NCBI GenBank assembly: GCA_016278725.1
Contig: JADQBG010000010.1
Coordinates: 112,229 to 176,228, forward strand
Length of the DNA: 64,000 nucleotides
Direction: 5' to 3'
Source: Actinomycetota bacterium
Lineage (GTDB): Bacteria; Actinomycetota; Thermoleophilia; RBG-16-64-13
Position numbers and translations under genes: made by a program. A model generated the notes under the pieces. That model had not been told where the DNA came from. It was given only the letters and a program-made list of their open reading frames with translations, and ran no database searches. Positions 12,430-45,147 of the stretch are shown one piece after another (positions within the stretch are counted from its first letter, which is position 1; each line of letters starts with the position of its first letter).

Positions 12430-12433
12430 ACCC

Positions 12434-14023: not shown

Positions 14024-14044
14024 TATTGCTCCTCCCGCCCCGGG

Positions 14045-15424: not shown

Positions 15425-15453
15425 GTTCTCGGTCCCTCCTTCGTCTCCTGCCT

Positions 15454-17103
15454 CTATCGGCGGCGGCGAACCGCGGAGGCTAACATATCCAGCGTTTCGC
15501 GGAGTTCGGGAAGCCGGATGATCCAGGCCAACCCCACGAACGAAAACGCGCCCCCGAACACCCCCAGGCCCACCCGCAGACCGAGTCCGCCGGTTCCGTC
15601 CACCGCGCCGGTTAGTATCGAATCGATGGCCCAGACGATGGCTCCCATGATCACGGCCGCCACCGTGGTGCGCGCGATGGAGGTGGCCAGCCGTCCGAAA
15701 CCCATGGGCCCCAGCTTGCGGCGCAGAAGCTCCACCAGCACCAAGAAATTGACGGTCAACGCGATCGTGGTTCCGAGCGCGAGGCCGCCAACTCCCAGGA
15801 ACAACATCAGCACGATGGAGACCGCGATGTTGAGAAACACCGTGGCCACGCTGATTTTAACGGGCGTGCGGGTGTCGTGATACGCGTAGAAGACGCGGGT
15901 GAGCGTGTCCCGGCCGGCGTAAGAGAAAAGCCCGAGCGAGTAGAAGAGCAAAGCGAACGCCGTTCTCTCGGTGTCGGCGGCGGCGAACTTGCCGTGCTCG
16001 AAAAGCAGGGCGACGATCGGCTCGCGCAACACCACCAGTCCCGCGGTGGCGGGGATCATGACAAAGGCGATCAGCCGAAGGGCGAAATTGAGCGTGGCCT
16101 TGAGCCGCTCAGGTTGATTGGCGGCCACGTGCTCCGACAGAAGCGGAAAGATCGGCACGGTGATGCCGGCCACGAACAGGCCCAGGGGAAGCTGGAACAG
16201 CTTCTCGGAATAACTGAGCGCCGAGACCGCCCCCTCGGGCAGCGTGGAAGCCAGAGTCTGGTCGGCGAAGATGCTCACCTTGCCGACGGCGGAGCCGATC
16301 AGGATGGGCCAGACCAGCATGCCCACGTGCCGCATGCCCGGTTCCTGCCAGTCGATACGCGCCCGCAGCCGCATGCCCTCTTTGCGCATCTGCGGCAGCA
16401 GTATGAGGAGCGAGGCCATGGCTCCCAGGGTGGTGCCCACCGCCAGGCTGGTGATCCCCCAGGATTCCTGGAAGAGCACCACGAAAAGCACGGCCAGCGC
16501 AGCGGCGGCCGAGGTGGAGAAGGCCGGCAGGCCGAAATGCTTGAGCGAATTGAGTACGCCGATGGCCAACCCCGCAAGTCCGGTGAAGATGACCCCCGGC
16601 ACGAGAATGCGGAACAAGAAGACGGCCTGATCCGCGGTCTCCTGGTCAAAGCCAAAACCCACCAGGGGAATGATCAGCGGCGCGGCCAGGATCAGGACCA
16701 CCGTAAGCAGCACCAGAACCAAACCGATCGCGTTGATCATATTGCCCGCCAGGCTCCACGCCCGTTCCCGGTCCCCTTTGACCAGACGTTGGGTGAAGAC
16801 CGGGATGAAGGTGGCGGTCAAAGCCCCTCCCACGGTCAGGGAAAGCAAAAAGGGGACCTTGTAGGCGAGGAAGAAGGCGTCGGTCGAGGCGCCCATCCCG
16901 AAGTAGAAGGCGACGACCTGATCTCGCACCAGACCGATGAGCCGCCCGAAGACGGTGGCCCCGAGAATGACGAGTGCGGCTCTGCCCACCGTCCCCTTCA
17001 TGTTCCTGGTGGCGGCTTCGAGCCCCTCCTCGGGCGCGGGCACTTCCGCCTCCACGTCGACCCCCACCGACGGCATCGGGGGTTCACCGGAATCGAAAGC
17101 CAT
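15454..17103 (-). CDS. murJ: lipid II flippase MurJ (MviN)
   Basis: 549 aa with 14 predicted TM helices; MurJ/MOP-superfamily layout with a Leu/Ala/Gly-rich conserved core. Confidence 0.7.
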   Translation of the reverse strand: MAFDSGEPPMPSVGVDVEAEVPAPEEGLEAATRNMKGTVGRAALVILGATVFGRLIGLVRDQVVAFYFGMGASTDAFFLAYKVPFLLSLTVGGALTATFIPVFTQRLVKGDRERAWSLAGNMINAIGLVLVLLTVVLILAAPLIIPLVGFGFDQETADQAVFLFRILVPGVIFTGLAGLAIGVLNSLKHFGLPAFSTSAAAALAVLFVVLFQESWGITSLAVGTTLGAMASLLILLPQMRKEGMRLRARIDWQEPGMRHVGMLVWPILIGSAVGKVSIFADQTLASTLPEGAVSALSYSEKLFQLPLGLFVAGITVPIFPLLSEHVAANQPERLKATLNFALRLIAFVMIPATAGLVVLREPIVALLFEHGKFAAADTERTAFALLFYSLGLFSYAGRDTLTRVFYAYHDTRTPVKISVATVFLNIAVSIVLMLFLGVGGLALGTTIALTVNFLVLVELLRRKLGPMGFGRLATSIARTTVAAVIMGAIVWAIDSILTGAVDGTGGLGLRVGLGVFGGAFSFVGLAWIIRLPELRETLDMLASAVRRRR

Positions 17104-18297
17104 CTAGATCTCTCGGCGGGCGAGGGCGACGGCCAGTCGGGCGGTCTCCCCGGATTCCTCTTTGAGCCGGCCGACCCGCGTGGACAGCCGGATGCGGCGC
17201 GACTCCGCGTTCTCCAGGGTGTCGTCCATCGCTTTCGTCAGCCGCTCCACGCCCTCAGGCCCCTCGAGCTCGTCCACGGAGACCGCCCAGGTGGTCTGTC
17301 CCGTTTGCTCGGCGAAAGCGGCCACCTTGGGGTCGTAGACCAAGGAGATAACCGGGGAGCCGCCGGAAGCGGCCAAGATGCCCGAGTGAAGCCGCATGGC
17401 CAAGACCGCGTCGGCTTCCCCCAGCAGCGCGACCGCGACCGCCGGCTCTTCCAGGAGAGGAGCCGCAGCCACCGACGTAGCGCCCCGGTGGGGCGAAAGG
17501 GAATCGGCGAGCCGAACGGCCAACTGCTCGGAGAGATCGCGGCAGAGGTCCACATCCTGGGTTGCGTGAAAAGGCACGAAGAGAACCTGATGCCCCCACC
17601 GCCGGACCACGCGTGCCAGCGCACCGAGGAGGCGCTCCTGATAAGTCTGGCGACCGAGCCAAGGACGGGGGCAGATGGCCAAATACGGCCGCGTAGGCTC
17701 CAGATCGGCCGCGAGCAGAACCTCTCGCGCCCGCTCCGAAGGGGCGGCCTTCAACGCATAGGCAGGATCGGGCACCACCCGCAGCAAGGGTGGGTGGGCG
17801 CCGAGTTCCAGCGCTAGCTGGGCCGAGGCCCGGTCCCGAAAGGTGACCACCTGGCTGTGGGATACCGCCAGGGACGCAAAAGTCCGAGCCGCCCCGGTGT
17901 GCAGCGGTCCCAACCCTTGTGCGTACCACATGACCGGCAGGCCGAGCGAGCGGGCAACGAATATCACCGAGAGGAAATAGGGGACCGGGCGCAGCTTTCC
18001 CTCCCGCCACAAGAACGAACGTCCGTGCTGCTCGAAGTCGGCTTCGTGCAGGAAACTACCGCCCCCGCTGATAAGCAGATCGTGGCCTCGCATAAGCTCG
18101 GCAAGCCGCGCGGGGTGCCGAAGCGAAGTCGGAGCGCTTCTCACGCCGTGGCGGCGCCGAGTGTCCTCGGGATCGAAGGAGAGCACCGTGAACCGGGCGT
18201 GGCAGTCGAGAGCCTCGACCTCCTGCAGGATACCGGCCAGGATGGCCTCGTCTCCCAGATTCCCCTCGCCGTAGTAGCCGCTGATCAGGTATCGCAT
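17104..18297 (-). CDS. csaB: polysaccharide pyruvyl transferase CsaB
   Basis: MRYLISGYYGEGNLGDEAIL start and PS_pyruv_trans fold motifs. Sits next to SLH proteins, as in the Bacillus anthracis and Thermus csaB loci. Confidence 0.75.
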   Translation of the reverse strand: MRYLISGYYGEGNLGDEAILAGILQEVEALDCHARFTVLSFDPEDTRRRHGVRSAPTSLRHPARLAELMRGHDLLISGGGSFLHEADFEQHGRSFLWREGKLRPVPYFLSVIFVARSLGLPVMWYAQGLGPLHTGAARTFASLAVSHSQVVTFRDRASAQLALELGAHPPLLRVVPDPAYALKAAPSERAREVLLAADLEPTRPYLAICPRPWLGRQTYQERLLGALARVVRRWGHQVLFVPFHATQDVDLCRDLSEQLAVRLADSLSPHRGATSVAAAPLLEEPAVAVALLGEADAVLAMRLHSGILAASGGSPVISLVYDPKVAAFAEQTGQTTWAVSVDELEGPEGVERLTKAMDDTLENAESRRIRLSTRVGRLKEESGETARLAVALARREI

Positions 18298-18303
18298 CCG
18301 GCT

Positions 18304-20550
18304 TTACCCTCTAGCCTCGGGGCGGCCGCCGGGGGGCCGGCGATCATGAGCCGGCGCCGGCCGGACTCCCCGCCCAGGCCCGTAATCGTCGGCGGCCATC
18401 AGCACCCGGTAGGCGAAGCGGGGAAGCGCCAGCTGACGCCGAAGCCGGGCGGGCTGGGTGACCAGGCGGTAGGCCCACTCCAGGCTGAGCCGGCGGAACG
18501 CCTCGGGGGCCCTGCGCACCCTTCCCGCCCAGACGTCGAAGCTTCCGCCCACGCCCAGAGCCACCGGCACCCCGAGTTCGCCGCGGTGCCGATGCAGGAA
18601 GAGCTCCTGCCGCGGAGCACCCAAGGCCACGAGAAGGATGTCTGCCCCCGAGCGCCGGACCTCCTCGACCACGGAGTCCTGCTCCTCCTCGCCAAAGTAG
18701 CCGTGACGCGCACCGGCCACGTCGAGCCCCGGGTAGCGCTGCCTCATGCGGGAGGCGGCGTCCGCGGCCACGCCGGGCGCCGCCCCCAAGAAGAAGACGG
18801 AAAGACCGTCTTCCGCCGCGCCTTCGAGAATGCGCTCCGCGAGTTCGATCCCCGGAACCCGCTCGACCCCCTCGACCCCCTGCATCCGGGCCGCCCAGAC
18901 GGCGCCCACCCCGTCGGGAAACCGCAGATCGGCTTCGGCCAGGGCGGAGGCGATGCGTTCGTCCTCCTGTGCCCGGACGAGCAGCTCCGGATTAAGGGAA
19001 ACCGCCAGCCTGGTGCGCTCCCACTGACCTTCGTCCGCGCACTCGAGGACCCACTCGGCGGCCTCTTCCAGGGTGACGCGGTGGGCGGCGAAGCCCAGGA
19101 TCGAAACCGAAGGCCAAACCGGTTCTTCCTCTCCCTCGCGCGCCGCGTTTTCCCGGCTTGCCGCCAGGAGTTCGTCCGAGGTCTCCGCGCGCAGTCTATG
19201 CAGGCTGCCCAGTCCCGGCCGGCCGGTTTGCCCCGTGGCCGGATCGCTTTGGCCGGTCCGGCCGCCTGGTTCCGCCGCACCCCCCACTTCCTGCGTTGTC
19301 TCCGGCGTGCCCGGTTCCTCGTCTCCATCCCACTCGAGCGACTGGCTCAAGCTCTGCCGGGCCCGCGAGTAGACATCCACGTAGTCACTCGCCGCTTTGA
19401 GGTGCGAGTGATTGGCGACCACGTAGTCGCGGGCGTTCGTGGCCAGCCGCTCGCGCAGGTTGGCATCCGCAGCCAAGCGCTCGATCGCCTGCGCGAGTGC
19501 GGCCGCATTCGCGTCGGGAACGAGCAGTCCGTTGACCCCGTGGCTCACCATTTCGGCAAGTCCGCCCACGGCCCCGGCGATCAAGGGGCGGCCGCTGGCC
19601 ATGGCTTCGAGTGCCGAAAGCGAGGTTGCCTCCTCCACTTTTTCCGAGTGCACCGAGGGGACCAGGACGATGTCGCACAACCGGTAGAGTTCCTCGATCT
19701 CCGCGCGGCCGAGGCCGCCGAGCAGCCTGACCTGCGCTTCCAGGCCCTGCTCGCGCACGATTTGCTCGATGGCCCCGCGCTCACCTCCGTCACCGGCATG
19801 CAGCAGCAGGTACTGCTCCCGCTCCGCCGGCTTCATCTCGGCCAGCGCCAGGGAGGGATAGATCACCCCGTTCTTCTTGACCAGGCGCCGCGGACAGAAG
19901 AGCACGGTCTTGTCCTCGGGAATGTCCCACTTGCGCCGCAGCTCCTCCCGGCCTTCCACGCTCGGGCTGAACGCCGATGTGTCGATGAAGTTCATCAGCG
20001 AGTAGGTGACGTCGGCCCTCTCGGGAACCAACCGCAGGACGTGACGGTAGAGCCGGCCGTCCACGGTCACGATGGCGTCCGCCAGACGAAGGGCCCGGAT
20101 CTCCGAACGCATCAGGTAGCGCCTTCCCAGGCGCGATCGGTTGGTATAACCCTCGGATACGGACTCGTAGAGCGGGTAACCATGGAGCGTCAGGACCAGG
20201 GGAACCCCGGCGCGGTCGGCCGCCGCCCGAAGCGCAGGCACCGAGTACACCTCCTGCGCATTGACCACCTGCCAATCGTGGCGGCGCAACTCCCGGTCGG
20301 CGAAGCCCGCCACCAGCCTTCCGCGAACCATTGCGGAGTAGACCATGCCCCAGCCGCGCCGCACTCGGTTGAGCGCCCCGGCGGCGTAGACCACCCCAAA
20401 CCGGCGCAGAGGCTCCGGTACCTGCTCGCCGAAATAGAGCACGTAGGGTTCGTGCCCCAGCTCCACCAGCCCGGCGGAGAGCATGTCCAGGTGCGTCGAG
20501 GTCCCGCCGATCTGGCCGGGATCCCGCATGGTGGGCAGGAGCACCTTCAC
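18304..20550 (-). CDS. bifunctional glycosyltransferase: N-terminal GT4 domain fused to C-terminal WecB/TagA/CpsF (GT26) domain
   Basis: Residues ~1-400 carry GT4 motifs (EATSLSALEAMASGRPLIA...GVNGLLV). A Gly/Glu/Thr/Pro linker follows. Residues ~470-700 match TagA-like ManNAc transferase (ILGFAAHRVTLEEAAEW...LGAPRQELF). Confidence 0.7.
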   Translation of the reverse strand: MKVLLPTMRDPGQIGGTSTHLDMLSAGLVELGHEPYVLYFGEQVPEPLRRFGVVYAAGALNRVRRGWGMVYSAMVRGRLVAGFADRELRRHDWQVVNAQEVYSVPALRAAADRAGVPLVLTLHGYPLYESVSEGYTNRSRLGRRYLMRSEIRALRLADAIVTVDGRLYRHVLRLVPERADVTYSLMNFIDTSAFSPSVEGREELRRKWDIPEDKTVLFCPRRLVKKNGVIYPSLALAEMKPAEREQYLLLHAGDGGERGAIEQIVREQGLEAQVRLLGGLGRAEIEELYRLCDIVLVPSVHSEKVEEATSLSALEAMASGRPLIAGAVGGLAEMVSHGVNGLLVPDANAAALAQAIERLAADANLRERLATNARDYVVANHSHLKAASDYVDVYSRARQSLSQSLEWDGDEEPGTPETTQEVGGAAEPGGRTGQSDPATGQTGRPGLGSLHRLRAETSDELLAASRENAAREGEEEPVWPSVSILGFAAHRVTLEEAAEWVLECADEGQWERTRLAVSLNPELLVRAQEDERIASALAEADLRFPDGVGAVWAARMQGVEGVERVPGIELAERILEGAAEDGLSVFFLGAAPGVAADAASRMRQRYPGLDVAGARHGYFGEEEQDSVVEEVRRSGADILLVALGAPRQELFLHRHRGELGVPVALGVGGSFDVWAGRVRRAPEAFRRLSLEWAYRLVTQPARLRRQLALPRFAYRVLMAADDYGPGRGVRPAPAHDRRPPGGRPEARG

Positions 20551-21761
20551 TAACGCCTCCCTCTTCTCGATTCCAGTATCATCGAACCGCTCCGGCGTGC
20601 GGCCCGCAGCGTCTCATCGACCAGCCGCGAGATATCCTCGACCCGGCCGTCCCAGCTGTTCTCACGCGCCAACTCCACCCGCTCTTGGCGCTTCCGGGGA
20701 GAATCCTCCTCCAGGGCACGATTCACCAGCCCCGGGTAATCGTCCGGGCTCTCGGCCAGATAGATCACGCCGCGATAGGGCTCCAGGGTGGGAAGGGCCG
20801 CGGCGACCACCGGGAGCCCGGCCGCCAGGTATTCGAAGAGCTTCAGGGGAAACATGTGCCGGGTGAGCTCGTTCAGTTGGTAGGGGATCAGGGCCACGTC
20901 CAGCCCCCGCAGGTAGGCGGGCAGTTCCTCCCGCGGCTTCCCGCCCAGAGAGTGCACCCGGGGGATGGCCTCGACCTCCTGCGCGGAAAGTTCTCCCCGC
21001 ACATACGGGCCGATCAGCACCAGCCTCCAGTCGGTGCCGGCCGCGGAGAGCGCGCGCAGCGCCTCCAGATCCAGGCGGGCATTGTGCACCCCCACGATCC
21101 CCAACCGGGGCCGGGCGATGGACGCGAGGTCCGCCGGTTCCGGCAAGGGCTCCCGGTAGGCCCGTTCAAAATGCTCGACGTCGGCCGCATTGGGGACGTG
21201 AAAGGTGCGCGGATTGAGCGGGCGCCGTTCTTCGCAGAGGCTGGAGGCGGTGGTGATCACCAGGTCCGCCCGGCGGGTCAAGGCGTCGTCGTAGGCGCGT
21301 ACGGTCTGCGGGTCGATAAGGCCGGGGAAGGCCGAGTGCTCGTCCACGCAGTGATAGACCGTCGCCTGAGGCCGCAGCCGGCTCAGCAGATGAATGCTCG
21401 TGGGCAGATAGGTCCAGAGCAGGTAGTCCCGCCAGCCCAGCCGCTTGAGCGCCCAACGGATATAGGAGCCCAGAACGGCTTGGTTCACCCGGTTGATCAC
21501 CGGCCTCATGTTACCGAAAGGAAAAAGCGGCGGCGGGGTCAGCACCCAGAGATTCTTCTCGGCCCGGCGCAGCCGCGGAACAAGCGCGGTCCATCGGCGC
21601 CAGCGCGCGGGCACTTTTAACGGGGCCAGCATGGTCACCGGCTCCTCGACGTAGAGGATGCGGTTGCCCTGAGCCAGCCGATGCATGATCTGCTGCTTGC
21701 TGGTCCAGGGCGCGTCCCAGTCGAGGGTGGAGACACATACTATAGAGTGGTTGCGAATCAT
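20550..21761 (-). CDS. glycosyltransferase family 4
   Basis: 403 aa; C-terminal GT-B core (FPLKLFEYLAAGLPVVAA). Confidence 0.65.
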   Translation of the reverse strand: MIRNHSIVCVSTLDWDAPWTSKQQIMHRLAQGNRILYVEEPVTMLAPLKVPARWRRWTALVPRLRRAEKNLWVLTPPPLFPFGNMRPVINRVNQAVLGSYIRWALKRLGWRDYLLWTYLPTSIHLLSRLRPQATVYHCVDEHSAFPGLIDPQTVRAYDDALTRRADLVITTASSLCEERRPLNPRTFHVPNAADVEHFERAYREPLPEPADLASIARPRLGIVGVHNARLDLEALRALSAAGTDWRLVLIGPYVRGELSAQEVEAIPRVHSLGGKPREELPAYLRGLDVALIPYQLNELTRHMFPLKLFEYLAAGLPVVAAALPTLEPYRGVIYLAESPDDYPGLVNRALEEDSPRKRQERVELARENSWDGRVEDISRLVDETLRAARRSGSMILESRRGRR

Positions 21762-22954
21762 CGCGGCGTTCCTCCCGCGGCCTGCTCGTAGACGGCCGTG
21801 GTTTGGTCCAGCCAGCGCTCCACGGTAAAGCGCCGCCGGGCCTGGCGAGCGGCCTCAGCGCCCAGCCGCTCCCGGCGCCCGCGTTCGGCCAACAGGCTCT
21901 CCAGCTCTCGGGCCAGGTCCGCGGGCCGATCACCCCGTACCACCACACCGCTCTTTCCGTCGGCCACCAGTTCGGGCAGGCTCCCTGCCTGCGAGACCAC
22001 TACCGGCAGTCCCGCGCTCATCGCTTCCACCACGGTGAGACCGAAGCCCTCGGCCCGCGAAGGCTGCACGAAGATATCCATGCCGGCGAGCGCCCGGTTC
22101 ACCTTGGGAGCATAACCCGGCAGCCGAACCCGATCCCCCAGACCGAGTTCTTCGATCAACTTTTCGAGACTCGCACGCTCCTCTCCTTCGCCCCAGATGA
22201 TCAGTTCGACCGAGGGCGGGTGCGAGATCAGCGGCAGGGCCCTTATCAAAAGGTCGAAGCCCTTGGTGTGGTGCAGGCGGCCGATCGAACCCAGGACCGG
22301 GGGCCGCTCAGAAGCCGCCGCGTCCTCATCCGGCGACGTCCGTTGGGACGCCACGCCCGGGCGGCTCGTGCCGGTGGAGACGATGGAGTGAGGTTCAATC
22401 CCGTGATAGACGACCGAGATCCGCTCCGCGGGCACACCCCGGGAGAGCAGACGGCGGCGCAGGTATTCTGAGGGCACCAGATAGTGCGCCGTTCGCCCCG
22501 CCAGCATCCGATCGACCAGCGAGAAGGCGAGCCGGCGCGCGGTTCCCGGATAATCGAAGCTCAGGTCGCTGTGCACCGTGGCCATGTGAGGCAGGCCGCA
22601 GACCCGCGCAGCCGCCCGCGCGTAGAAATTGGCGACCACCCCTTGGCTGGCGATCAGGTCGGCGCCTTCGGAGCGAGCCACCTCGGCGATGGCGGCGGGA
22701 GCGCGGGGGGCAACGCGCGAGGCCTCGAGGACCACCACGGGCTCGCCCATCTCCCGGAGCCGCGCGGTGAGGTCCCATTCGCCCATGCTGACCAGCAGCA
22801 GACGAAGCCGGGAGCGGTCGTAACCAAGAAACAAGCTTTCGAGGTAGGCCTCGGCCCCGCCGGGAAAGCGGGCGCCGCTATAGACCACGAGCGCTGTCGG
22901 CGGAGCCGCGCCCTGTCTCTCGGTCTCTAATCTCTGTCTCTCGGTTTCGTCCAT
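21758..22954 (-). CDS. glycosyltransferase family 4
   Basis: 398 aa; EGFGLTVVEAMSAGLPVVVS...G..G GT4 signature. Confidence 0.7.
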   Translation of the reverse strand: MDETERQRLETERQGAAPPTALVVYSGARFPGGAEAYLESLFLGYDRSRLRLLLVSMGEWDLTARLREMGEPVVVLEASRVAPRAPAAIAEVARSEGADLIASQGVVANFYARAAARVCGLPHMATVHSDLSFDYPGTARRLAFSLVDRMLAGRTAHYLVPSEYLRRRLLSRGVPAERISVVYHGIEPHSIVSTGTSRPGVASQRTSPDEDAAASERPPVLGSIGRLHHTKGFDLLIRALPLISHPPSVELIIWGEGEERASLEKLIEELGLGDRVRLPGYAPKVNRALAGMDIFVQPSRAEGFGLTVVEAMSAGLPVVVSQAGSLPELVADGKSGVVVRGDRPADLARELESLLAERGRRERLGAEAARQARRRFTVERWLDQTTAVYEQAAGGTPR

Positions 22955-24934
22955 CTAGACGTGACCTTCCCGCTCGATGGGCCCTGCGGCAGCCCTCGGC
23001 TCGCCGGAACCGCCGGCCGCCAGACCGGTGAGGAACCAGAAGCCGGCACCCACCACCAGGGTCTCCCACACCCCCGCGGTCACGTTGGCCACCGCCACAG
23101 CGACGAAGGCGCCAAACACCCCGGCGGCAAAGGCGCGCATCCAGGGATCCGGCTCGTACAGATAGGCTGCGACCAGGCTCTTCGCAGCACGCAGGAGCAA
23201 CCAGAGAAACGCCACCAGCAAGATCAGCCCGCCCTCGGCCCCGAGTTGCAGGTAGAAGTTGTCCACCCAGAGCCGGCCGTAGCCCCAGAGGACCGCGCTC
23301 GTTCCGCCAAAGGTGCCCAGACCCACCCCGAACCAGGGGTTCTGGACGATGTGTCCCAAAGACACGTTCCACATGAGCAGGCGGCCGGCCACCAGGCTCT
23401 TATTGATGTAGGCGCTGCTGAAGGCAAAAGTCAGGCGATCGATGACTGCGGCGGGCAGGAAAACCGGGGCAACCAGCGCCCCGGCCACCAGCGCCCCGAA
23501 GAAGCGCCGGTAGGCCAGAACCGCCATGGCGACCACGCCGGCGATCAGCCCCAGCCAGGACCCGCGGCTGAAGGTCACCCCCACGCCCGCGGTCAGCGTG
23601 AGGGTCAGCAGGCCGAGCAGGAGGAAGTGCCGGGGACGGCGGGTGGCCAGCGTCAACGAAGCCGAAACCAGGGTGCCGAGCAAGAGGAACGCGGCCAGAC
23701 CGTTGGGGTTCTCGATAATGGAGTAGGCCCGAGTGCCGAAGCTCTGCTCCTGCCGGTCGACCCAACTCTGCGGCATGGGCGCGTCGGTGGCGAACTGGAA
23801 GAGACCGTGAAGCGCCATCGCCAAGGCCGCTGCTAGAAATACGCCGACGGCCAACTTGACCCAGCGTCGGTCGCGGGGGAGCAGGTAGCCCAAATAGAAG
23901 AAGAGCAACGGTTGAAAGGTGATCCGCAGCCCAAAGAGCGCGGGCCCCGGCGGCACCTCGTTCATCGCCACGGAGCCCAGGGCGGCCACGAAGGCGACCA
24001 GGAGCGGCACAGTGATGGGCACCGTGCGCAGCTGCACCCTGCCCGCCAGGAAGACCGAGAAGAGCAGGGCGCTCAGCGCCCCCAGCAATAAGAGCTCGTC
24101 CCACATGGGCGCCAGCGCTCCCAAGGCGTTCCGAGCGGCAAAATCCAGCCAAGGGAAGGCGGCCAGGATCAAGAGAATAGCCTCCGGCCGGAAGAGCGCG
24201 AAGGCGGCGACTCCCAGAGCCAGCGCGCCCCCAATGATGACAACCGAGGACAGCCCTCCCGCCGCTCCGGCGAGGCCCCCAATCAGCAGACTCAATCCGG
24301 CTGTGAGGGTCTTAGCCAGAGGATGGCCCTGCCAGCCTTGGGACGGAGCCGGGGTCGCCGCTCCCCGGTCGAGACCCAGGATGCTGAGAGCGAGAGAAAC
24401 CGAGCGCGGATGCGACGACGCGCCGCCCGACAGGCCCAGAGCCGCGGCCCCACCCCAGACAAGCACCAAGCCCAAGAACAGCAGGCCCGCCCAGCCCAAC
24501 GCCGCCCCGAGTTCGGTCAACTCCACCCGGGCATCCGTGATCCAGATGAATAGCAGCCGGCCAAGACCGCCGAGACCCGCTCCCCCAAGTAGAAAGCCCA
24601 CAATCCGCAGCCATCCCGCGGCCCCCAAGACGGAGCGCCCGCTATCGAGGGAGATCTGATCGACCGCCCGGCCCAGAGTCCCACGGCTGCCCCGGTAGAG
24701 CAGGCGGTAGGGAGCGGCGATCACCCAGAAGGTGAGCGGCCCGCCCGGCTCATGCAGGCTGCGGCTGCGGACTGAATCCAGGTTGAAGATCACGCTGCCG
24801 GCAAGCGCCGCCTGCAAGTGCAGCCAAAGCCAAGTGAGACTGCGGCCAAAGAAAGAGTTGGCCCAAGAGCGAACGAGAGAGCCGTAGGCCCGACCGGCCC
24901 ACCGAAGTGAGAGGGATTCTCGGTAGAGCTCCAT
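22955..24934 (-). CDS. O-antigen ligase / Wzy-like polysaccharide polymerase family membrane protein
   Basis: 659 aa with >12 TM helices and a central Wzy_C-like loop region. Confidence 0.55.
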   Translation of the reverse strand: MELYRESLSLRWAGRAYGSLVRSWANSFFGRSLTWLWLHLQAALAGSVIFNLDSVRSRSLHEPGGPLTFWVIAAPYRLLYRGSRGTLGRAVDQISLDSGRSVLGAAGWLRIVGFLLGGAGLGGLGRLLFIWITDARVELTELGAALGWAGLLFLGLVLVWGGAAALGLSGGASSHPRSVSLALSILGLDRGAATPAPSQGWQGHPLAKTLTAGLSLLIGGLAGAAGGLSSVVIIGGALALGVAAFALFRPEAILLILAAFPWLDFAARNALGALAPMWDELLLLGALSALLFSVFLAGRVQLRTVPITVPLLVAFVAALGSVAMNEVPPGPALFGLRITFQPLLFFYLGYLLPRDRRWVKLAVGVFLAAALAMALHGLFQFATDAPMPQSWVDRQEQSFGTRAYSIIENPNGLAAFLLLGTLVSASLTLATRRPRHFLLLGLLTLTLTAGVGVTFSRGSWLGLIAGVVAMAVLAYRRFFGALVAGALVAPVFLPAAVIDRLTFAFSSAYINKSLVAGRLLMWNVSLGHIVQNPWFGVGLGTFGGTSAVLWGYGRLWVDNFYLQLGAEGGLILLVAFLWLLLRAAKSLVAAYLYEPDPWMRAFAAGVFGAFVAVAVANVTAGVWETLVVGAGFWFLTGLAAGGSGEPRAAAGPIEREGHV

Positions 24935-24943
24935 GCTCCGGCC

Positions 24944-25432
24944 TTAAGAGGCCCCGGCCACCTCGATCTTGGTAATCGCCGCGCGCACCGAAAATCCGGG
25001 GCCTTTGACCACCAGTTGCCGTCCGACCTCTAGGGGGATGCTGCCGATGGCGTACTGCGAATCCGACACCTGCCCTTGGCCCTCAACCGTGAAGTCGATG
25101 TCGCGATAGAGCGTCGAATCTTTTGGCCCCACCACCTCGCCGGTCTGCTCATTGAGGAACTCCACTTGAGTGGGGTAGTCGTCCGTCCACTGGATGGTGC
25201 CGAGCACGGTTCCGGTTTCGTCGCGCACCTGGTCGCCCACCTCGATCTCGTAGATCGTGACATCGCGCACCTGTTCCACCTTGAAGGTGGTGATCAGGGT
25301 TTCCTCGTCCCCGGTCCCGGCGACGAAGCGCACGTAGGCAAAAGCGACAAGCGCAATCAGCGCAAGCACCACCAGTAGATCGACCAGATTGACCCAGCCG
25401 AACAGCCGACCGCGGTTATCGATGAAAGCCAT
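24944..25432 (-). CDS. DUF4330 family protein
   Basis: MAFIDNRGRLFGWVNLVDLLVVLALIA... then a beta-rich domain. The ORF-track extension to 25900 is an antisense artefact overlapping the wecB start. Confidence 0.55.
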   Translation of the reverse strand: MAFIDNRGRLFGWVNLVDLLVVLALIALVAFAYVRFVAGTGDEETLITTFKVEQVRDVTIYEIEVGDQVRDETGTVLGTIQWTDDYPTQVEFLNEQTGEVVGPKDSTLYRDIDFTVEGQGQVSDSQYAIGSIPLEVGRQLVVKGPGFSVRAAITKIEVAGAS

Positions 25433-25549
25433 GGAAGGAACCTCACAAGAAAGCGGGAAAAGAGCAACAATAAGACAGCCTGGGATTCTATCCGAAACAC
25501 CGGGGGACTGTAATCCCCCGCAAAAAGCGCCAAGCGAAAGGCTAGGACC

Positions 25550-26710
25550 ATGACCCGGACCCTCTTCGTGAGCTTCGGCACGCGGCCCGAGGCGATCAAG
25601 ATGGCGCCCGTGGTGCAGGAACTCCACCGGCGCGAGCACTTTCACGTGATCACCTGCCTCACCGGGCAGCACCGGGAGATGCTCGATCAAGTAGTCGAGA
25701 CCTTCGGCCTGCCGGTCGACCACGACCTGGACGTCATGCGCCGCACTCAGTCGCTGACGCACATCACCTCTGCCGTGCTCCAGGGCCTCGAGCCGCTCCT
25801 GGTCGAGCGGGGCGCCGACATGGTGCTGGTTCACGGGGATACCACCACCACTTTCGCCACCGCGCTGGCGGCCTTCTACCACCAGATTCCGGTGGCCCAC
25901 GTCGAGGCGGGGCTGCGCACCGACACCCTCTACAATCCCTATCCCGAAGAGGCCAACCGCCGGCTCACCGACCGTCTGGCGGAACTGCTCTTCGCTCCCA
26001 CGCCCGCAGCCAGGGAGTCCTTGCTCGCCGAAGGCTCGCCGGACGAAGGGGTTCTGGTCACCGGCAACACCGTGATCGACGCATTAATGGCAACCGCCGA
26101 AAAGGACCCTCCTCAGTGGGAGCCGCAGATCAGGGAAGCGCTCTCCCGGCCGGGCAAGAAGATCCTGGTCACCGTCCACCGGCGGGAGAGCTGGGGCGTG
26201 CCCATGCAGTCCATAGCCCGGGCCATCCGCGAAACCTGCGAGCGCCACGAGGACGTCACCTTCATCTTCCCCATCCACCTCAATCCGGTGGTGCGGGAAA
26301 CTTTCAGGGGGATTTTGGGAGGCCTGCGGGGCGTGGTTTTCACCGATCCGCTGTCCTATCGCCCCTTCGTCCACCTGATGAAGACGGTCGACCTCGTGAT
26401 CACCGACTCCGGCGGGATCCAGGAGGAGGCCCCCACCCTGGGCAAACCGGTGCTAGTGATGCGAGACACCACCGAAAGACCCGAAGGCATCGACGCCGGA
26501 ACCGCGCGCTTGGTGGGAACGGACACCCAAGCGATAGCCGCCGCCCTCTCGGAGTTACTGACCGACCAGACGGCCTACTCCCGGATGGCCAACGCCGTCA
26601 ATCCATATGGAGACGGCAAAGCTTCGGCCCGGATAGCCGATCAGCTCGAGTACTTCTTCGGATATCGCCAGGAGCCGGCCGAGGCGTTCGGCCCACCGGC
26701 CGAGAAATAG
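25550..26710 (+). CDS. wecB: UDP-N-acetylglucosamine 2-epimerase, non-hydrolysing (WecB/MnaA)
   Basis: GTRPEAIKMAPV...HVEAGLRT...DSGGIQEE motifs; 386 aa. Confidence 0.85.
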   Translation: MTRTLFVSFGTRPEAIKMAPVVQELHRREHFHVITCLTGQHREMLDQVVETFGLPVDHDLDVMRRTQSLTHITSAVLQGLEPLLVERGADMVLVHGDTTTTFATALAAFYHQIPVAHVEAGLRTDTLYNPYPEEANRRLTDRLAELLFAPTPAARESLLAEGSPDEGVLVTGNTVIDALMATAEKDPPQWEPQIREALSRPGKKILVTVHRRESWGVPMQSIARAIRETCERHEDVTFIFPIHLNPVVRETFRGILGGLRGVVFTDPLSYRPFVHLMKTVDLVITDSGGIQEEAPTLGKPVLVMRDTTERPEGIDAGTARLVGTDTQAIAAALSELLTDQTAYSRMANAVNPYGDGKASARIADQLEYFFGYRQEPAEAFGPPAEK

Positions 26711-26872
26711 TTCCTGCAAACTGCGGCCTCGAGAATTGTCGGTCTTTACTTTGGCCGAGGCTTGTTCCATAGTGTGTGAACGAGATTGCAAGGCCACGCG
26801 AGCTTGAAACCCCCGCCAAGGGTTTGCCTGCTCTCAGCGGATTTTGTACGCTAAGAGAAGCAAGCGCGGCTT

Positions 26873-27799
26873 TTGAGGAGAAGGAGAAAGAACGGGAGGC
26901 TTGGGTTGATGCCCTCCGGCCCCGCCGGTAACGGCGAGAGAGCGCGTGGTTTAGGGCTCTCTCGCTTCGTGCTGCTCGCGCTGCTTGCGCTGGCCCTGGC
27001 GCTGACGGCTGCCGTTTTGACGGGTTGCACCGAGGCGGATTCCGGAGCCACTCCGGACGAGACCCAGGATTCAGCCGCGCCCAATGGAGATACGACCGCG
27101 CCCGAAGCCACCGACGCCCAACCCGTCACCTCCGAGGACGACGGGTCAGGGGCCCTCGATGAGAACGCGCCGACCACGGCCGCTTCGGGCTCGCCGGATA
27201 CCCCGGCCACCGCCGGGAGGACTCAGGCCAGGCGTTTGGCCCCGTCCGAGGGCCGCTTTGCCGTCTGCGCCGACTGCCACGCCTTCTTCGACCCACCGGG
27301 AAAACCGCCCGCTACACTCAAGGCGAATTTCTCGCACGAAGCGCACCTCGAGTACGGCGCGGAGTGCGAATCCTGCCATGTGCGCCCCGCACACACCCGT
27401 GAGGGCATCAATAGACCGCAGATGCTCACCTGCTTCGACTGTCACGGGCTCTCCGCGGAGGCGCGCGCCCCGGGAGAGTGCGAGACCTGCCACCCTGCCG
27501 ACTTCGATCTGGTGCCGGCCAGCCACACCCCGGAATTCGTGGAGGAGCAGCACCCGCAGGTGGCCGAGAAGGAGAGCCGCGATTACTGCGCCCTCTGCCA
27601 CGAGGGCGGACCGGAAGATCTGTGCATGACCTGCCACGGGCTCGCGATGCCGCATCCGGCTGATTTCCTGCCGTCTGCACAAGGTATCGGCGGGCACGTG
27701 GACGCCGCCCATGACCAGGGCGAGCTATGCACGCGCTGCCACGATATCCGCAAGGATCCGCCGGCCGCGTGTTACGGGTCGGAGTGCCATGGCAGTTAG
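26873..27799 (+). CDS. multihaem c-type cytochrome lipoprotein (7 CXXCH + 1 CX4CH)
   Basis: Signal peptide with lipobox LTGC. Motifs CADCH, CESCH, CFDCH, CETCH, CALCH, CMTCH, CTRCH and CYGSECH are present. Confidence 0.75.
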   Translation: MRRRRKNGRLGLMPSGPAGNGERARGLGLSRFVLLALLALALALTAAVLTGCTEADSGATPDETQDSAAPNGDTTAPEATDAQPVTSEDDGSGALDENAPTTAASGSPDTPATAGRTQARRLAPSEGRFAVCADCHAFFDPPGKPPATLKANFSHEAHLEYGAECESCHVRPAHTREGINRPQMLTCFDCHGLSAEARAPGECETCHPADFDLVPASHTPEFVEEQHPQVAEKESRDYCALCHEGGPEDLCMTCHGLAMPHPADFLPSAQGIGGHVDAAHDQGELCTRCHDIRKDPPAACYGSECHGS

Positions 27800-27821
27800 G
27801 CCCCTGTTACAGCCGGACTGG

Positions 27822-29864
27822 ATGATGAGCGGGCGCCGCTCGCTGATGGTTTTTCTCGTGCTGGGTGCGTTCATCGTACTGGGCGGACTGACACTGTTTT
27901 CGCCGGAGGGGCCCAGCGACGCCCACGCCCTTTCGCAGTGGGTGCACGCCACGGCGCAGGACTGCGCGGACTGCCACCACACCCAACCCATCGGCTCGTT
28001 CTTCCCCTGCCTGCGCTGCCACGTCACCCCCGAGGTGCCCAACACGGTCTGTCAGAGCTGCCACGCCAACAAGGTCACCGAAGCCGAGCCCTGCTGGTCC
28101 TGCCACGAGCCGGGGCAGGACATGCCCGCCTGGACGAGTGAGGCCTGCCAGCAGTGCCACGGCACCAATCCTCATCCCTTCTCCCAATTTCTGGGACAGC
28201 CGGACTGCACCCGCTGCCACGTTCAGCAGGACCCCTCGCCCCACCACGATGGGGCGGATCAGGTGGCGCCGGATTCCTGCCGCGACTGCCACGCGACCCC
28301 CCCAAGTCACAACGGGGTCGGCTGCACCAGTTGCCACAGCACGGAGACCCATCCCAGCTATCCGGAGGTGCCAACCACCTGCTTCCAGTGCCACGAGCCC
28401 GCCACCTTCGGGGGCCAGCCGAGTTGTCTTACCTGCCACTTTGGAGCGGCCAACTTTGGCGGGGTGGGGGACGACGACGTCCACGACACCTCGATCCCTG
28501 ACCCGCCGATCACCGGTGACAGCTGTACCTCCTGCCATGCCGGCTTCGAACGGCACGCCGGTGAGATCGACTGCGAGACGTGCCACTTCCAGGCCACCGC
28601 GTTCCACCACAACCGCGCTCCCGATCCCGGATATCGGGACTGTGAGACGTGTCACGGCGAGACGCCGCAGCACGGGCAACAGGATTTGCCCTGTCAACAG
28701 TGTCACCAGGACGCCATACACAACGTGAACCCGCAACCGCCGGGGCCCGGCGTCTGCAACATCTGCCATGCTCCCGCCAACTTCGGTGTCGGCGACTGCC
28801 TGGACTGCCACGCACCGCCGGTCTATCACGCGGATCCCACGGTGCCGGGATGCACCTCGCACCACGGCCCGACCCAGATTCACGACAACCTGGGCAGTTG
28901 TGAGTCGTGCCACACCAACCCGGCGGAAGGTCACCATCTCACCCAGGTGAACATCCCCGACTGCCGCGCTTGCCACGAGCAGGACTTCCACGTGGGACAG
29001 ATCGAATGCTCGCGCTGCCACCAGAACTCCGCCCACGACAACACGCCCAGGAACCTGCCGACCCCGGTTTGGGACGTCTGTCTGCAGTGCCACCCCTTCG
29101 CCGCCAAGGCTCCGGCCTGCTCGGAGTGCCACGACACTACCCAGCACAGCGCCACCTATCGGGTGCCGGACGACTGCAATGCCTGCCACGACAAAACCCT
29201 CCATGCGGGCAAGGTCCAATGCCAGAGCTGCCACACACGCATAGAGTCCGGCCACCACAACGACGGCCCGGTGACGGCACGGGCCTGCTCCGATTGCCAC
29301 GTGGGAGCGCAGGTGCATGCCGCTTCGACCGAAGGAGGTAGCGGCTTCAGCTGTTCGACCTGTCACGAGGGCGGAGTTCACGGAGTGGTCAAACTGCCCA
29401 ACCGCGAGCGCTGCCTGGAATGTCATGAGCAAGCGCCCGAACACGCAGCGGACCTCGAGTGCATTCAGTGTCACTGGCCCGCCGCCCACGACGCCAGCCC
29501 GGTCGCCGGCGAATTCGGCAACTACGAGCCCCTGGCCTTGCGTCTACCCCCCTCGGCCGGTGCGCCGGGCGATGAGGGAGAGACTCGGGACGAGTTCACC
29601 AACACCGGGGCTGATCTCAGGATCTACGTGCTCTTGGGCGGGGCCCTGATGATGGCCGGCTTGATGGCCCGCTACTGGCGGCGTCCGCAACCGCTGCTGC
29701 TGCCCGGTTCCCCGGCGCCGTCCGGCTCGCGAGTTCCTTCGGCTCCCGAAGCGCCCACTCGGGGGCGCGCTGCGACCCGCGCCGGAACCCCTGCCGCTAC
29801 CCCCCGGCCCAAGCGCGCGGGCAAGAAGGCGCCACGCGGCGGACGCAAAAGGCGCAAGCGCTAG
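27822..29864 (+). CDS. giant multihaem c-type cytochrome (~27 CXXCH), membrane-anchored
   Basis: Start chosen at MMSGRRSLMVFLVLGAFIVLGGLTLF (N-terminal TM helix) just after the upstream stop. 27 canonical CXXCH motifs plus one degenerate CTSHH, with many HH pairs. C-terminal hydrophobic helix is followed by a polybasic tail. Confidence 0.8.
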   Translation: MMSGRRSLMVFLVLGAFIVLGGLTLFSPEGPSDAHALSQWVHATAQDCADCHHTQPIGSFFPCLRCHVTPEVPNTVCQSCHANKVTEAEPCWSCHEPGQDMPAWTSEACQQCHGTNPHPFSQFLGQPDCTRCHVQQDPSPHHDGADQVAPDSCRDCHATPPSHNGVGCTSCHSTETHPSYPEVPTTCFQCHEPATFGGQPSCLTCHFGAANFGGVGDDDVHDTSIPDPPITGDSCTSCHAGFERHAGEIDCETCHFQATAFHHNRAPDPGYRDCETCHGETPQHGQQDLPCQQCHQDAIHNVNPQPPGPGVCNICHAPANFGVGDCLDCHAPPVYHADPTVPGCTSHHGPTQIHDNLGSCESCHTNPAEGHHLTQVNIPDCRACHEQDFHVGQIECSRCHQNSAHDNTPRNLPTPVWDVCLQCHPFAAKAPACSECHDTTQHSATYRVPDDCNACHDKTLHAGKVQCQSCHTRIESGHHNDGPVTARACSDCHVGAQVHAASTEGGSGFSCSTCHEGGVHGVVKLPNRERCLECHEQAPEHAADLECIQCHWPAAHDASPVAGEFGNYEPLALRLPPSAGAPGDEGETRDEFTNTGADLRIYVLLGGALMMAGLMARYWRRPQPLLLPGSPAPSGSRVPSAPEAPTRGRAATRAGTPAATPRPKRAGKKAPRGGRKRRKR

Positions 29865-30133
29865 AAGTCGACGAACTCCCCGTCGTGCTCCTGGCAGGAA
29901 AGCAGATCCAGGACCGAGCGGTCCTCCTGCACCTCGCCCACGAAGACGACCGAGGGCCCGGTGTAGAGAGTGACCCGGGCGCCCACGGGGAGCCGCAGCG
30001 GTTTTCCCTCCGTGTCGGTCAGCTCACGCAAGCGGGAGTGATCGGCCTCCCATTCCACGCGCGCAGACCCTATCGGGAAGGGTTCGGCCTCACCCACCCG
30101 CAACCGCGGTTCTTTGTCGGCGGTGATCTTCAT
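29861..30133 (-). CDS. hypothetical small protein (90 aa) downstream of larB
   Basis: Same strand as, and immediately after, larB. No recognisable motif. Confidence 0.4.
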   Translation of the reverse strand: MKITADKEPRLRVGEAEPFPIGSARVEWEADHSRLRELTDTEGKPLRLPVGARVTLYTGPSVVFVGEVQEDRSVLDLLSCQEHDGEFVDF

Positions 30134-30165
30134 GATTGGGATATCGGCCGGAGGGGCGGATTGGC

Positions 30166-30969
30166 TTAAGCGGTCCGGCTCCGTGAGGCGCGCAGGGCGA
30201 TGAGCGCGGCCGCGGCTCCGGCCCCCACGCCGTTATCCACGTTTACGACCACCACTCCCGGCGAGCAGGTCTGGAGCATGGCGTAGAGGGCCGCGGTGCC
30301 GTCTCCTCCGACCCCGTAGCCGGTCGAGGTGGGTACTCCGATAACCGGCACGGATACCAGTCCGCCCACCACCGAGGGCAGCGCCCCCTCCATGCCTGCC
30401 ACGACGATGAGCGCGTCCACCTCGGCCCGCACCATGTCGGCCAGCGGTTCGAGCAGGCGGTGTACTCCGGAGACCCCCACGTCGAAAGCGCGTTCGGCGC
30501 CGACGCCCATGTGGCGCGCCACCAAAGCGGCCTCCTCGGCCACGGGGACGTCCGAGGTTCCGGCCGTCAGCACCCCGATCTTCCCCCCACCCTCGGGCGG
30601 GGCGTAGTCGGGGAGCGTCGCCTCGAGGGTCCGGTTCATGCGGGAATGATCGAGGATCACCCCGGGATGCTCCCGGCGCACCCGCTCCTCGAGCGGAACC
30701 AATCTGTCGGGTTCCAGGCGGCTGACCAGGGCCAAGCCCTTGGCGGTCAGGAAGCGGCTGACGATCGCGGCGAGAATCTCGTCATCCTTGCTGGGGGCGT
30801 AGATCACCTCGGGCACGGCTTTTCGCTCTCGCCGGCCGAGGTCCAGGCGGGCAAAGCCCTCCACCTCTGCGATCTGGAGCAGGGGCAGCAGGCCCAACGC
30901 CTCCTCGATTCCGATATCGCCCGCGGCCAGTTCCTCCAAGACGCGGCGCAGATTCAGATCGCCCCTCAC
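30166..30969 (-). CDS. larB: nickel-pincer cofactor biosynthesis protein LarB (PurE-like)
   Basis: 267 aa; PurE-like C-terminal half (GVLTAGTSDVP...VIGVPTSTGYG...VVNVDNGVGAG) with the N-terminal extension typical of LarB. Confidence 0.7.
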   Translation of the reverse strand: MRGDLNLRRVLEELAAGDIGIEEALGLLPLLQIAEVEGFARLDLGRRERKAVPEVIYAPSKDDEILAAIVSRFLTAKGLALVSRLEPDRLVPLEERVRREHPGVILDHSRMNRTLEATLPDYAPPEGGGKIGVLTAGTSDVPVAEEAALVARHMGVGAERAFDVGVSGVHRLLEPLADMVRAEVDALIVVAGMEGALPSVVGGLVSVPVIGVPTSTGYGVGGDGTAALYAMLQTCSPGVVVVNVDNGVGAGAAAALIALRASRSRTA

Positions 30970-41409: not shown

Positions 41410-41410
41410 C

Positions 41411-42961: not shown

Positions 42962-43004
42962 TGAGAAAAGTGAGCGCCAACAGCAGCAAGCGGGAGGAGC
43001 AGTA

Positions 43005-43904: not shown

Positions 43905-43912
43905 GAGCAGGT

Positions 43913-45130: not shown

Positions 45131-45147
45131 GAGGGGAGTGAGGGCAG

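Follow-up and report, generated by a model that had tools for sequence, protein, structure and literature searches.

The stretch of DNA analysed here (the window) comprises 64,000 nucleotides (nt) of contig JADQBG010000010.1 from an Actinomycetota bacterium of the class Thermoleophilia, and carries two adjacent genes, here called cytA and cytB. The haem motifs, the conservation and the targeting signals support CytA and CytB as genuine multihaem c-type cytochromes that are exported outside the cytoplasmic membrane, and a role in electron export is the best reading of the pair. CytA is a predicted lipoprotein with eight haem sites. CytB has 28 densely arranged haem sites, and its C-terminus resembles the sorting signal of sortase substrates. 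We consider it moderately probable that the two genes encode a route for electrons that starts at the outer face of the cytoplasmic membrane and passes through the cell wall, for extracellular electron transfer (EET). The features of the two genes are as follows.

26909..27799, + strand: cytA, octahaem c-type cytochrome lipoprotein (predicted; open reading frame (ORF) of 296 amino acids (aa), Pfam Cytochrome_C7 match, orthologues)
26909..27028, + strand: predicted signal peptide of cytA with the terminal lipobox LTGC at 27017-27028, residues 37-40 (sequence)
27029..27244, + strand: acidic linker of cytA, ~72 residues, rich in Ala, Thr, Asp and Pro (composition; pLDDT 30-44 in the AlphaFold2 model)
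27245..27796, + strand: haem domain of cytA, 8 haem sites (profile match to 3OV0; invariant His and M172)
27789..29864, + strand: cytB, cytochrome with 27 CXXCH and 1 CXXHH (ORF of 691 aa, Pfam Cytochrom_c3_2 match, 16 orthologue clusters)
27789..27929, + strand: predicted Sec signal peptide of cytB, residues 1-47, signal peptidase I site predicted after A45-H46-A47 (alignment)
27945..29489, + strand: haem region of cytB, residues 53-567 (alignment of 16 sequences, motif counts)
28851..28865, + strand: CTSHH, haem site 17 of cytB with the second Cys changed to His, residues 355-359 (alignment with orthologues)
29595..29609, + strand: FTNTG, putative LPXTG-like sortase recognition motif of cytB, residues 603-607 (alignment; TIGR01167 scores)
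29610..29861, + strand: hydrophobic segment of cytB (residues 608-~628), RYWRR as putative stop-transfer, and a 60-residue Pro/Arg/Lys-rich tail, predicted cytoplasmic, ending in RKRRKR (sequence)

The cytA frame has two possible starts, TTG at 26873 (308 aa) and ATG at 26909 (296 aa). The latter is more likely, because GGGAGG is located 9 nt upstream and the public gene call of 296 aa uses the same start. The cytB frame is open from 27711, and ATG 27789 is the likely start because GGAG is located 5 nt upstream and the public gene call of 691 aa agrees with it. The start of cytB overlaps the TAG stop of cytA by 11 nt, and because of this overlap the two genes probably form one operon, co-transcribed and translationally coupled. 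In a scan of 26500-30300, no promoter-like site was detected, and terminator-like sites did not exceed the chance level. An Rfam scan gave no match near the operon.

The GC content of the DNA is 65%. In shuffled CytA the motif CXXCH occurred 0.05 times on average (7 observed), and in shuffled CytB 0.35 times with a maximum of 4 (27 observed). Since the shuffled proteins are nearly free of motifs, the haem motif pattern is not a compositional artefact of the GC-rich DNA. An earlier note on this DNA had described a lipoprotein with the lipobox LTGC, 7 CXXCH and 1 CX4CH, followed by a large protein with 27 CXXCH and one CTSHH. All of these motifs were found again, the latter set in the 691-residue CytB. 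No ORF in the window or in the related actinobacterial loci, other than the orthologues of cytA and cytB, contains at least two CXXCH motifs, and none carries a C-terminal signal of the CytB type.

CytB contains, together with the 27 CXXCH and the CTSHH, six HH pairs, and has 55 Cys and 57 His in all. The 28 haem sites are located within 504 residues, corresponding to 18.0 residues per haem. The spacing from motif to motif is 13-33 residues with a mean of 18, and not ~20-25 residues as had been estimated in the earlier note. In the alignment of 16 sequences, all the 28 proximal His and 27 further non-motif His are invariant, and the haem motifs of both CytA and CytB are conserved without exception among orthologues as distant as 42% identity. 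The haem region of the window protein has one Met, and no Met is conserved in the family. The ratio of His to haem is 2.0 in the CytB variants with 18, 28 and 34 haem sites, which contain no more than a few Met, none of them conserved, and the density is steady at ~18 residues per haem. The ratio of 2.0 and the absence of a conserved Met point to bis-His ligation throughout CytB. The protein is acidic, with 69 Asp and Glu against 21 Lys and Arg.

The number of residues per haem is ~24 in c7, ~27 in c3 and ~26 in GSU1996, and to our knowledge the density of CytB is the highest. This density of ~18 residues per haem is the unusual trait, and the statement in the earlier note that 27 haems lie at the extreme end was exaggerated. 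The Geobacter protein GSU2210 also has 27 haems (PMC10138318), and the maxima are 87 haem motifs in Desulfuromonadia (PMC11492766) and 86 in a protein of anaerobic methanotrophic (ANME) archaea (PMC9012536).

The length of CytB varies by modules. The orthologue P0003 (locus L001 10001-12367; also in L009) has 34 haem sites through a tandem duplication of ~107 residues with six haem motifs. The orthologue P0080 (locus L021) has 18 haem sites, and its C-terminus consists of LTDTG, a hydrophobic segment and RRRKD. Variants with 18, 28 and 34 haems are consistent with a wire, not with a globular catalytic core. According to Pfam, CytB matches PF14537 (Cytochrom_c3_2; 54.5 bits, cutoff 25), PF14522 (49.5 bits, cutoff 24.8) and PF02085 (31.6 bits, cutoff 22.9). 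When the CytB profile was compared with the PDB, GSU1996 was matched with an E value of 7.8e-8, and GSU1996 and the 16-haem HmcA are the closest solved relatives by sequence. By analogy with GSU1996, the haem chain of which is linear (PMC10138318), we infer that the haems of CytB may form a linear chain.

The CTSHH motif at haem site 17 had been described as degenerate. The second Cys is indeed absent, but the alignment argues against random degeneration. The motif stands in the place of an ancestral CXXCH, as site 17 is C-S/T-x-C-H in 13 orthologues and CxxHH in the window protein, P0001 and P0002. P0002 has a second change from Cys to His, namely CWTHH at site 4. The change from Cys to His needs two nucleotide changes and yet it recurs, so the CXXHH variant may be selected, for example for haem attachment through a single thioether bond. 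The recurrent CXXHH sites thus raise the question of this mode of attachment. At site 19, most sequences have CX4CH, and the clade of the window protein has CXXCH.

According to the alignment, CytB has a predicted signal at each end, for export at the N-terminus and for anchoring at the C-terminus. A45 and A47 are invariant in all the 16 sequences and directly precede the first conserved His, whereas the remaining N-terminus is unconserved except for a hydrophobic stretch. As an invariant AxA follows an otherwise unconserved hydrophobic N-terminus, the N-terminal helix is predicted to be a cleavable Sec signal peptide. The hydrophobic segment reported in the earlier note is therefore present, but it is not expected to be a permanent anchor. 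Export by the Tat pathway was considered on account of the RR in the window signal peptide and rejected, because RR is not conserved in the orthologues. In addition, c-type cytochromes cross the membrane unfolded via Sec.

At the C-terminus, FTNTG is followed by ADLRIYVLLGGALMMAGLMA and then by RYWRR, in the order of a tripartite sortase signal. The C-terminal helix and the polybasic tail noted before are present, and they are predicted to be the second and third parts of a sorting signal. Since FTNTG precedes the helix and the basic tail, CytB is predicted to be attached to the wall and not just to the membrane. Across the family, the motif reads [FLY][TSAPD]xTG. It mostly begins with Phe, position 2 is mostly Thr, Ala or Ser, and the variants include a literal LPYTG in P0015 and YPATG in P0013. 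In all the CytB orthologues, 20-22 hydrophobic residues and then Arg or Lys follow the motif. The linker between the last haem and the motif is variable, and in several orthologues it is poly-Thr of the wall-spanning type. Other sorting systems, namely PEP-CTERM, PGF-CTERM, MYXO-CTERM and IPTL-CTERM with exosortases or archaeosortases, were rejected because all gave E values above 2.

The same C-terminus might belong to a protein that is no sortase substrate. CytB would then be a type I membrane protein after cleavage of the signal peptide, the TG would be a helix-capping or structural element, and the pair would act at the membrane surface as a carrier or store on the periplasm side, without spanning the wall. 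Seven isolated C-terminal fragments were scanned against NCBIfam, in which the model TIGR01167 (LPXTG_anchor) has a curated cutoff of 15.9 bits. P0015 (21.8 bits) and P0012 (16.8 bits) scored above it, whereas P0013 (15.4 bits), the window protein (14.3 bits) and the other orthologues (12.8-14.3 bits) scored below, which is a point for this reading. Phe at position 1 is also atypical of a sorting motif, a basic tail of 60 residues, limited to the window protein and P0001, is not usual in sorting signals, and no sortase gene was seen in the window. However, G607 is invariant and T606 nearly invariant among the 16 sequences, within a region that is otherwise poorly conserved. The LPYTG and YPATG variants, the two scores above the cutoff and the Thr-rich linkers ahead of the motif likewise fit a sorting signal better, and in 6 of the 7 fragments the top models are sortase-signal families (LPXTG, LAXTG, LAVTG and NPXTG). 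A mere membrane protein is thus in our view rather improbable, and a sortase substrate is the preferred reading of the C-terminus.

CytA has 7 CXXCH and a C-terminal CYGSECH (CX4CH). Its signal peptide was examined for a terminal [LVI][ASTVI][GAS]C with a conserved Cys. The lipobox LTGC conforms to this pattern, and Cys40 is invariant in eight orthologues, in which the lipobox takes the forms LTGC, LPGC, LTAC, AAGC, LVGC, VYGC and LAGC. The mature N-terminus is thus predicted to be a lipidated Cys40. The linker that follows is modelled as disordered by AlphaFold2, and in the orthologues it is ~40 to 75 residues long, variable in sequence and rich in Ser, Thr, Pro, Asp and Glu. It is predicted to be a flexible tether.

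The haem domain of CytA has 185 residues in the eight orthologues, with 7 CXXCH and CYG(G/S)(E/D)CH, and all eight motifs are invariant. Seven non-motif His and M172 are also invariant. The first three haems belong to a c7-type triheme unit, and Met172 aligns with the Met-bearing position of the GSU1996 domains. The Pfam score for PF14522 (Cytochrome_C7) is 38 bits with a cutoff of 24.8. The profile of CytA and its relatives gave GSU1996 (3OV0) as the best match in the PDB (E 2.9e-22), and HmcA, ActA of alternative complex III, MtrC/OmcA and OcwA were all matched more weakly.

According to these matches, both proteins fall in Pfam into multihaem cytochrome c of the class III/c7-like type (PF14537, PF14522, PF02085). 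As the earlier note had stated, neither can be placed in a named family, since only these generic c3/c7 domains are matched. For the nanowire model TIGR04257 (nanowire_3heme; cutoff 40 bits), CytA scored 19.9 bits and CytB gave no match. One His/Met haem per triheme domain, as in poly-c7 proteins, was not found, and the only conserved Met is in the first unit of CytA. For PF22113 (MtrC/OmcA; gathering threshold 30 bits), CytA scored 19.9 bits and CytB again gave no match, and OmcS, OmcE and OmcZ chains are not among the listed matches of the CytA and CytB profiles to the PDB. The MtrC and OmcS families were therefore rejected as the identity of the pair. The CytB profile did not match OcwA (6I5B) at E<=0.1. 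The CytA profile matched OcwA with an E value of 4.8e-8 over ~100 residues only, no better than many multihaem cytochromes.

A catalytic function was also considered, in which CytA and CytB would be subunits of a periplasmic multihaem enzyme of the NrfA, HAO, OTR or MccA type, or of an Hmc-like complex, in a diderm cell with no extracellular role. Local profile matches to NrfA, NrfH, HmcA, MccA and a HAO-like protein were obtained. They are weak (E 1e-3 to 1e-9) and confined to short stretches of electron-transfer haems. CXXCK is absent from both proteins, and C-x(11-17)-CH matches only across neighbouring CXXCH motifs. With no CXXCK, CX15CH or other catalytic-site motif, and with a distal His candidate for every haem, the families NrfA, HAO/HDH, OTR and MccA were rejected. 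Partner membrane subunits or catalytic subunits are not adjacent to the pair, and the lipobox, the LPXTG-like signals and the Actinomycetota origin oppose a classical periplasm. A periplasmic enzyme is therefore highly improbable, and electron transfer remains the favoured function.

The distribution of the pair is narrow. Full-length relatives of CytB amount to ~16 clusters at 90% identity among 5.8 billion proteins, with an identity of 42-88% to the window protein. When 1.84 billion cluster representatives were searched exhaustively with a profile, 19 proteins had E<=1e-30 and 1355 had E<=1e-3. CytB is thus a narrow orthologous family, judging by sequence, within a very large and loosely related pool of poly-haem proteins. 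It is carried by 7 of 185,579 species-representative genomes. All are metagenome-assembled genomes (MAGs) labelled as Actinomycetota, Thermoleophilia, Gaiellales or Actinomycetes. An origin in Bacillota or Limnochordia, considered on account of the SLH domains and the high GC content, was rejected on the basis of these labels. CytA is equally narrow in distribution (~13 clusters). The organisms with cytA-cytB are uncultured, and the relatives originate from varied metagenomes, including MAGs of the Danish MFD survey. A second group of proteins is equally haem-dense (P0021, P0084, P0087, P0091, P0094 and P0101). These share the N-terminal W-E-H-G-T-A...C signature, and their C-terminus is a beta-rich domain (...YRAVWRP...), not an LPXTG-like signal.

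A cytA orthologue is located immediately upstream of cytB in 8/8 related actinobacterial loci, and the pair is placed likewise in loci L021 and L022. The gene order is the genes for a secondary cell wall polymer (SCWP), Wzy_C, DUF4330, in some cases a FAD oxidoreductase, epimerase, cytA and cytB, followed by a convergent 91-aa ORF, LarB, amidohydrolase and Ddl. Wherever the flanks are readable, the pair keeps this position, even at the locus of the most divergent orthologue and at that of a variant with 18 haems.

Distant relatives of CytA may indicate the source of its electrons. P0066 and P0068 are 14-haem lipoproteins clustered with a NapC/NirT-like cytochrome, cytochrome b and a Ccm system. 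In P0067, P0069 and P0070, an N-terminal NapC/NirT module is fused to a CytA-like C-terminal part with CYGG(E/Q)CH at its end, and PF03264 scores 52.7 bits in P0069. P0069 adjoins a CbcL-like cytochrome c-b fusion and menaquinone genes of the futalosine pathway. At a low identity of 23% (BLASTP E 4e-12), these arrangements hint that CytA-type domains act directly downstream of quinol oxidation. CytA and CytB themselves do not match PF03264 (NapC/NirT). CytA shares with NapC, NirT and CymA only the likeness through the fused relatives, and differs from them in having no haem-adjacent transmembrane helix and in being lipid-anchored, as predicted, by a long linker. Because of these differences, direct quinol oxidation by CytA is unlikely. 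The locus of P0069 (L019 1-9173, 68.8% GC) contains the CbcL-like multihaem-cytochrome b fusion, NapC/NirT-like cytochromes, the fusion P0069 and the futalosine menaquinone genes. Its cytochrome genes may encode a module for quinol oxidation in a related organism.

The following electron path is proposed. After export, CytA would receive its lipid at Cys40 and stay at the membrane surface through a flexible acidic tether of ~70 residues. Its eight haems, of which the first three would be a c7-type unit with one His/Met haem, would collect electrons from a menaquinol dehydrogenase that is presumably encoded elsewhere. CytB would be exported by Sec, and its signal peptide would be removed after AHA. 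A sortase would process the FTNTG, helix and tail, and Thr606 would be covalently joined to peptidoglycan; if CytB is not processed, the C-terminal helix itself would retain the protein in the membrane. The mature CytB would have ~560 residues with 27-28 close-set bis-His haems of low potential, if the sites are occupied. The linear chain of GSU1996 extends ~1 nm per haem. If CytB is linear like GSU1996, its single chain would extend as a rod over 20-30 nm and cross the peptidoglycan, the SCWP and the S-layer. This span would be of the order of the monoderm wall, the thickness of which is quoted as 20-80 nm (PMC7911101). The electrons would reach extracellular acceptors, for example minerals of Fe(III)/Mn(IV), humics or partner cells.

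Several points weigh against this electron path. CytB site 17 has no second Cys, so that one haem is possibly missing or singly attached. The signal of the window protein is below the LPXTG cutoff, with Phe instead of Leu at its first position and an unusually long tail, and full-length CytB gave no match in NCBIfam. No gene for a sortase, cytochrome c maturation, Lgt/Lsp or a quinol dehydrogenase was detected in the 64 kb of the window or in the 10 kb that precede it, and no sortase, maturation system or quinol dehydrogenase in the flanks of ±10 kb of the orthologue loci. The window does not contain a cytochrome b gene either. The AlphaFold2 models are of low confidence, both that of CytB from the 16-sequence alignment (pLDDT 42.8, pTM 0.20) and that of CytA from 23 sequences (pLDDT 52.0). 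A Foldseek search of the PDB with the CytA model gave a single meaningless match (E 7.1). The rigid synteny with cell-wall genes is possibly mere lineage history. Finally, Thermoleophilia are called 'gram-negative' by staining in one preprint (10.1101/2022.03.26.485925).

The direction of the electron flow may also be different. The conduit could work inwards, from Fe(II), reduced humics, a cathode or a syntrophic partner, or it could be a capacitor or redox buffer located in the wall and not a terminal reductase. Multihaem chains are reversible, and 28 low-potential haems could store 28 electrons per molecule. Monomeric nanowires of the GSU1996 type, which are the closest solved relatives, have been proposed as capacitors (PMC10138318). 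In all the genomes examined, the pair lies among housekeeping genes of the wall, which suggests that it belongs constitutively to the envelope. Against these points, all-bis-His ligation generally gives low haem potentials, and such potentials suit export over Fe(II) uptake at neutral pH. A covalent anchor directed to the surface, together with a separate membrane-tethered partner, resembles a relay and not a reservoir. Inward flow or storage is on these grounds unlikely, and outward transfer is retained.

Wall-crossing electron transfer in monoderm cells is known to us in outline only for Thermincola and Carboxydothermus, for which stacking or polymerisation of several small cytochromes has been proposed. 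The resemblance to Thermincola potens and T. ferriacetica lies in the thick monoderm wall that multihaem c-type cytochromes cross from the membrane through the wall to the surface; the Thermincola chain consists of ImdcA in the membrane, PdcA in the periplasm, CwcA in the wall, a proposed polymer, and OcwA at the surface (PMC7911101, PMC6703420). The two systems are not orthologous, and the phyla are different (Bacillota against Actinomycetota). The four Thermincola proteins have 6-10 haems each, and CwcA is proposed to act in 4-16 copies, whereas here a single polypeptide has 27/28 haems and a predicted sortase-type anchor.

The Geobacter proteins GSU1996 (12 haems, 3OV0) and GSU2210 resemble CytB in having many haems per chain in small c7/c3-like units, and GSU1996 is the best profile match among solved structures. 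They differ in being soluble and periplasmic in a diderm cell, with a His/Met haem in each triheme unit, whereas CytB has no conserved Met and no match to TIGR04257. The Geobacter nanowire cytochromes have ~26 residues per haem, against ~18 in CytB, which also has a signal peptide and an LPXTG-like anchor. A 27-haem protein of G. metallireducens is 130.7 kDa, compared with ~60 kDa for the CytB apoprotein. The multihaem cytochromes of the S-layer in ANME archaea and the 27-87-haem proteins of Desulfuromonadia likewise have very high haem counts and are predicted to bridge an envelope layer, and some small ANME multihaem cytochromes have PGF-CTERM archaeosortase signals (PMC9012536, PMC11492766). 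These are other families, of far greater size per haem, with a lipid-linked archaeosortase signal or an S-layer domain where CytB has an LPXTG-like signal.

With the LPXTG/LAXTG substrates of Gram-positive bacteria, CytB shares the tripartite C-terminal signal and the Sec signal peptide. Several of its orthologues also have the Thr/Pro-rich linker of the wall-spanning type. The differences are the cargo, which is a multihaem cytochrome, and the motif, which is mostly Phe-first with Thr, Ala or Ser second. In the literature searched, no paper was found that links multihaem cytochromes to sortase or LPXTG. Four traits appear to be undescribed, namely a multihaem cytochrome with an LPXTG-type anchor, its pairing with a lipoprotein cytochrome, the ~18 residues per haem and the fixed position at wall-biogenesis genes in Actinomycetota. 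EET-like cytochromes in Thermoleophilia MAGs are mentioned in passing by a preprint (10.1101/2022.03.26.485925).

A stronger proposal is made only tentatively, and we would sooner doubt it than rely on it. CytB would be the first sortase-attached cytochrome, a single-chain, all-bis-His 28-haem wire that bridges the wall alone and is fed by a lipid-tethered octahaem partner, and the pair would be a new constitutive two-gene route of EET. The locus suggests a simpler design than a stack of small cytochromes, with one lipid-tethered collector and one long, dense haem wire that is fixed to the wall via the sortase pathway. We know of no cytochrome-based EET that has been characterised in Actinomycetota. 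If the proposal is correct, cytochrome-based EET would extend to this phylum and cytochromes would join the known sortase cargo. The pair would also provide a new marker for sequence-based EET surveys, which may currently miss such proteins, and the variants with 18, 28 and 34 haems would provide a compact modular scaffold for bioelectronic engineering.

The further features of the window are as follows.

25550..26710, + strand: UDP-GlcNAc 2-epimerase (MnaA-type), conserved upstream neighbour (Pfam Epimerase_2, 390 bits)
29861..30133, - strand: convergent 90-aa ORF, overlapping the cytB stop by 4 nt (no family or Pfam match)
9118-15424 and 17104-18297, - strand: four SLH-domain proteins fused to CAP, SpoIID, Amidase_3 and Peptidase_M23 (domain matches)
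18304-20550, - strand: 748-aa fusion of a GT4 glycosyltransferase and a WecG/TagA-family ManNAc transferase (fusion also in locus L002)
41008-51023, + strand: Tad/Flp pilus locus (TadE, TadG, CpaB/RcpC, CpaE-like ATPase, CpaF, two TadB/C-like proteins, prepilin peptidases)
51494-51739, - strand: adjacent tRNA-Ile(GAT) and tRNA-Ala(TGC)
411-588, - strand: cobalamin riboswitch (92 bits), upstream of the cobalamin operon

The SLH/SCWP cluster (9118-26710) is directly upstream of cytA, in agreement with the S-layer/SCWP island that had been recognised beside the pair. The MnaA-type epimerase is its last gene and recurs in every locus with an annotated upstream flank. The cell-wall genes of the cluster on the - strand encode MurJ, a CsaB-type polysaccharide pyruvyl transferase, the GT4-WecG/TagA fusion, two more GT4 proteins, Wzy_C and DUF4330. 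Downstream, the 90-aa ORF is followed by a LarB-like AIR-carboxylase-fold protein, an amidohydrolase, Ddl and a GGDEF protein. In loci L001, L002, L021 and L022, a 91-aa ORF has the corresponding position and is always followed by a LarB-like gene.

A monoderm-type envelope is predicted from the Actinomycetota affiliation, the SLH-anchored wall hydrolases with CsaB, the Tad locus without a secretin and the sorting signals. The affiliation and the sorting signals speak for the monoderm-type cell assumed in the earlier note, and no secretin gene accompanies the Tad/Flp locus within the window, as that note had also observed.

The SLH proteins beside a CsaB-type pyruvyl transferase represent a system of anchoring by SLH domains and pyruvylated SCWP, here in an Actinomycetota lineage. 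Such anchoring is better known from Bacillota. In the Tad locus, one TadB/C-like T2SSF protein (46539-48533) has an N-terminal von Willebrand A domain, and there are two prepilin-peptidase-like genes. The tRNA-Ile/tRNA-Ala pair is usually located within the 16S-23S spacer, and no rRNA was detected in the window. The cobalamin operon extends past the start of the window (L020, 10 kb) and includes CobU, CobD, an aminotransferase, CbiA, CbiK/X-CbiC and CbiMQO. The chelatase of the CbiK/CbiX type suggests the anaerobic cobalamin route with early cobalt insertion.

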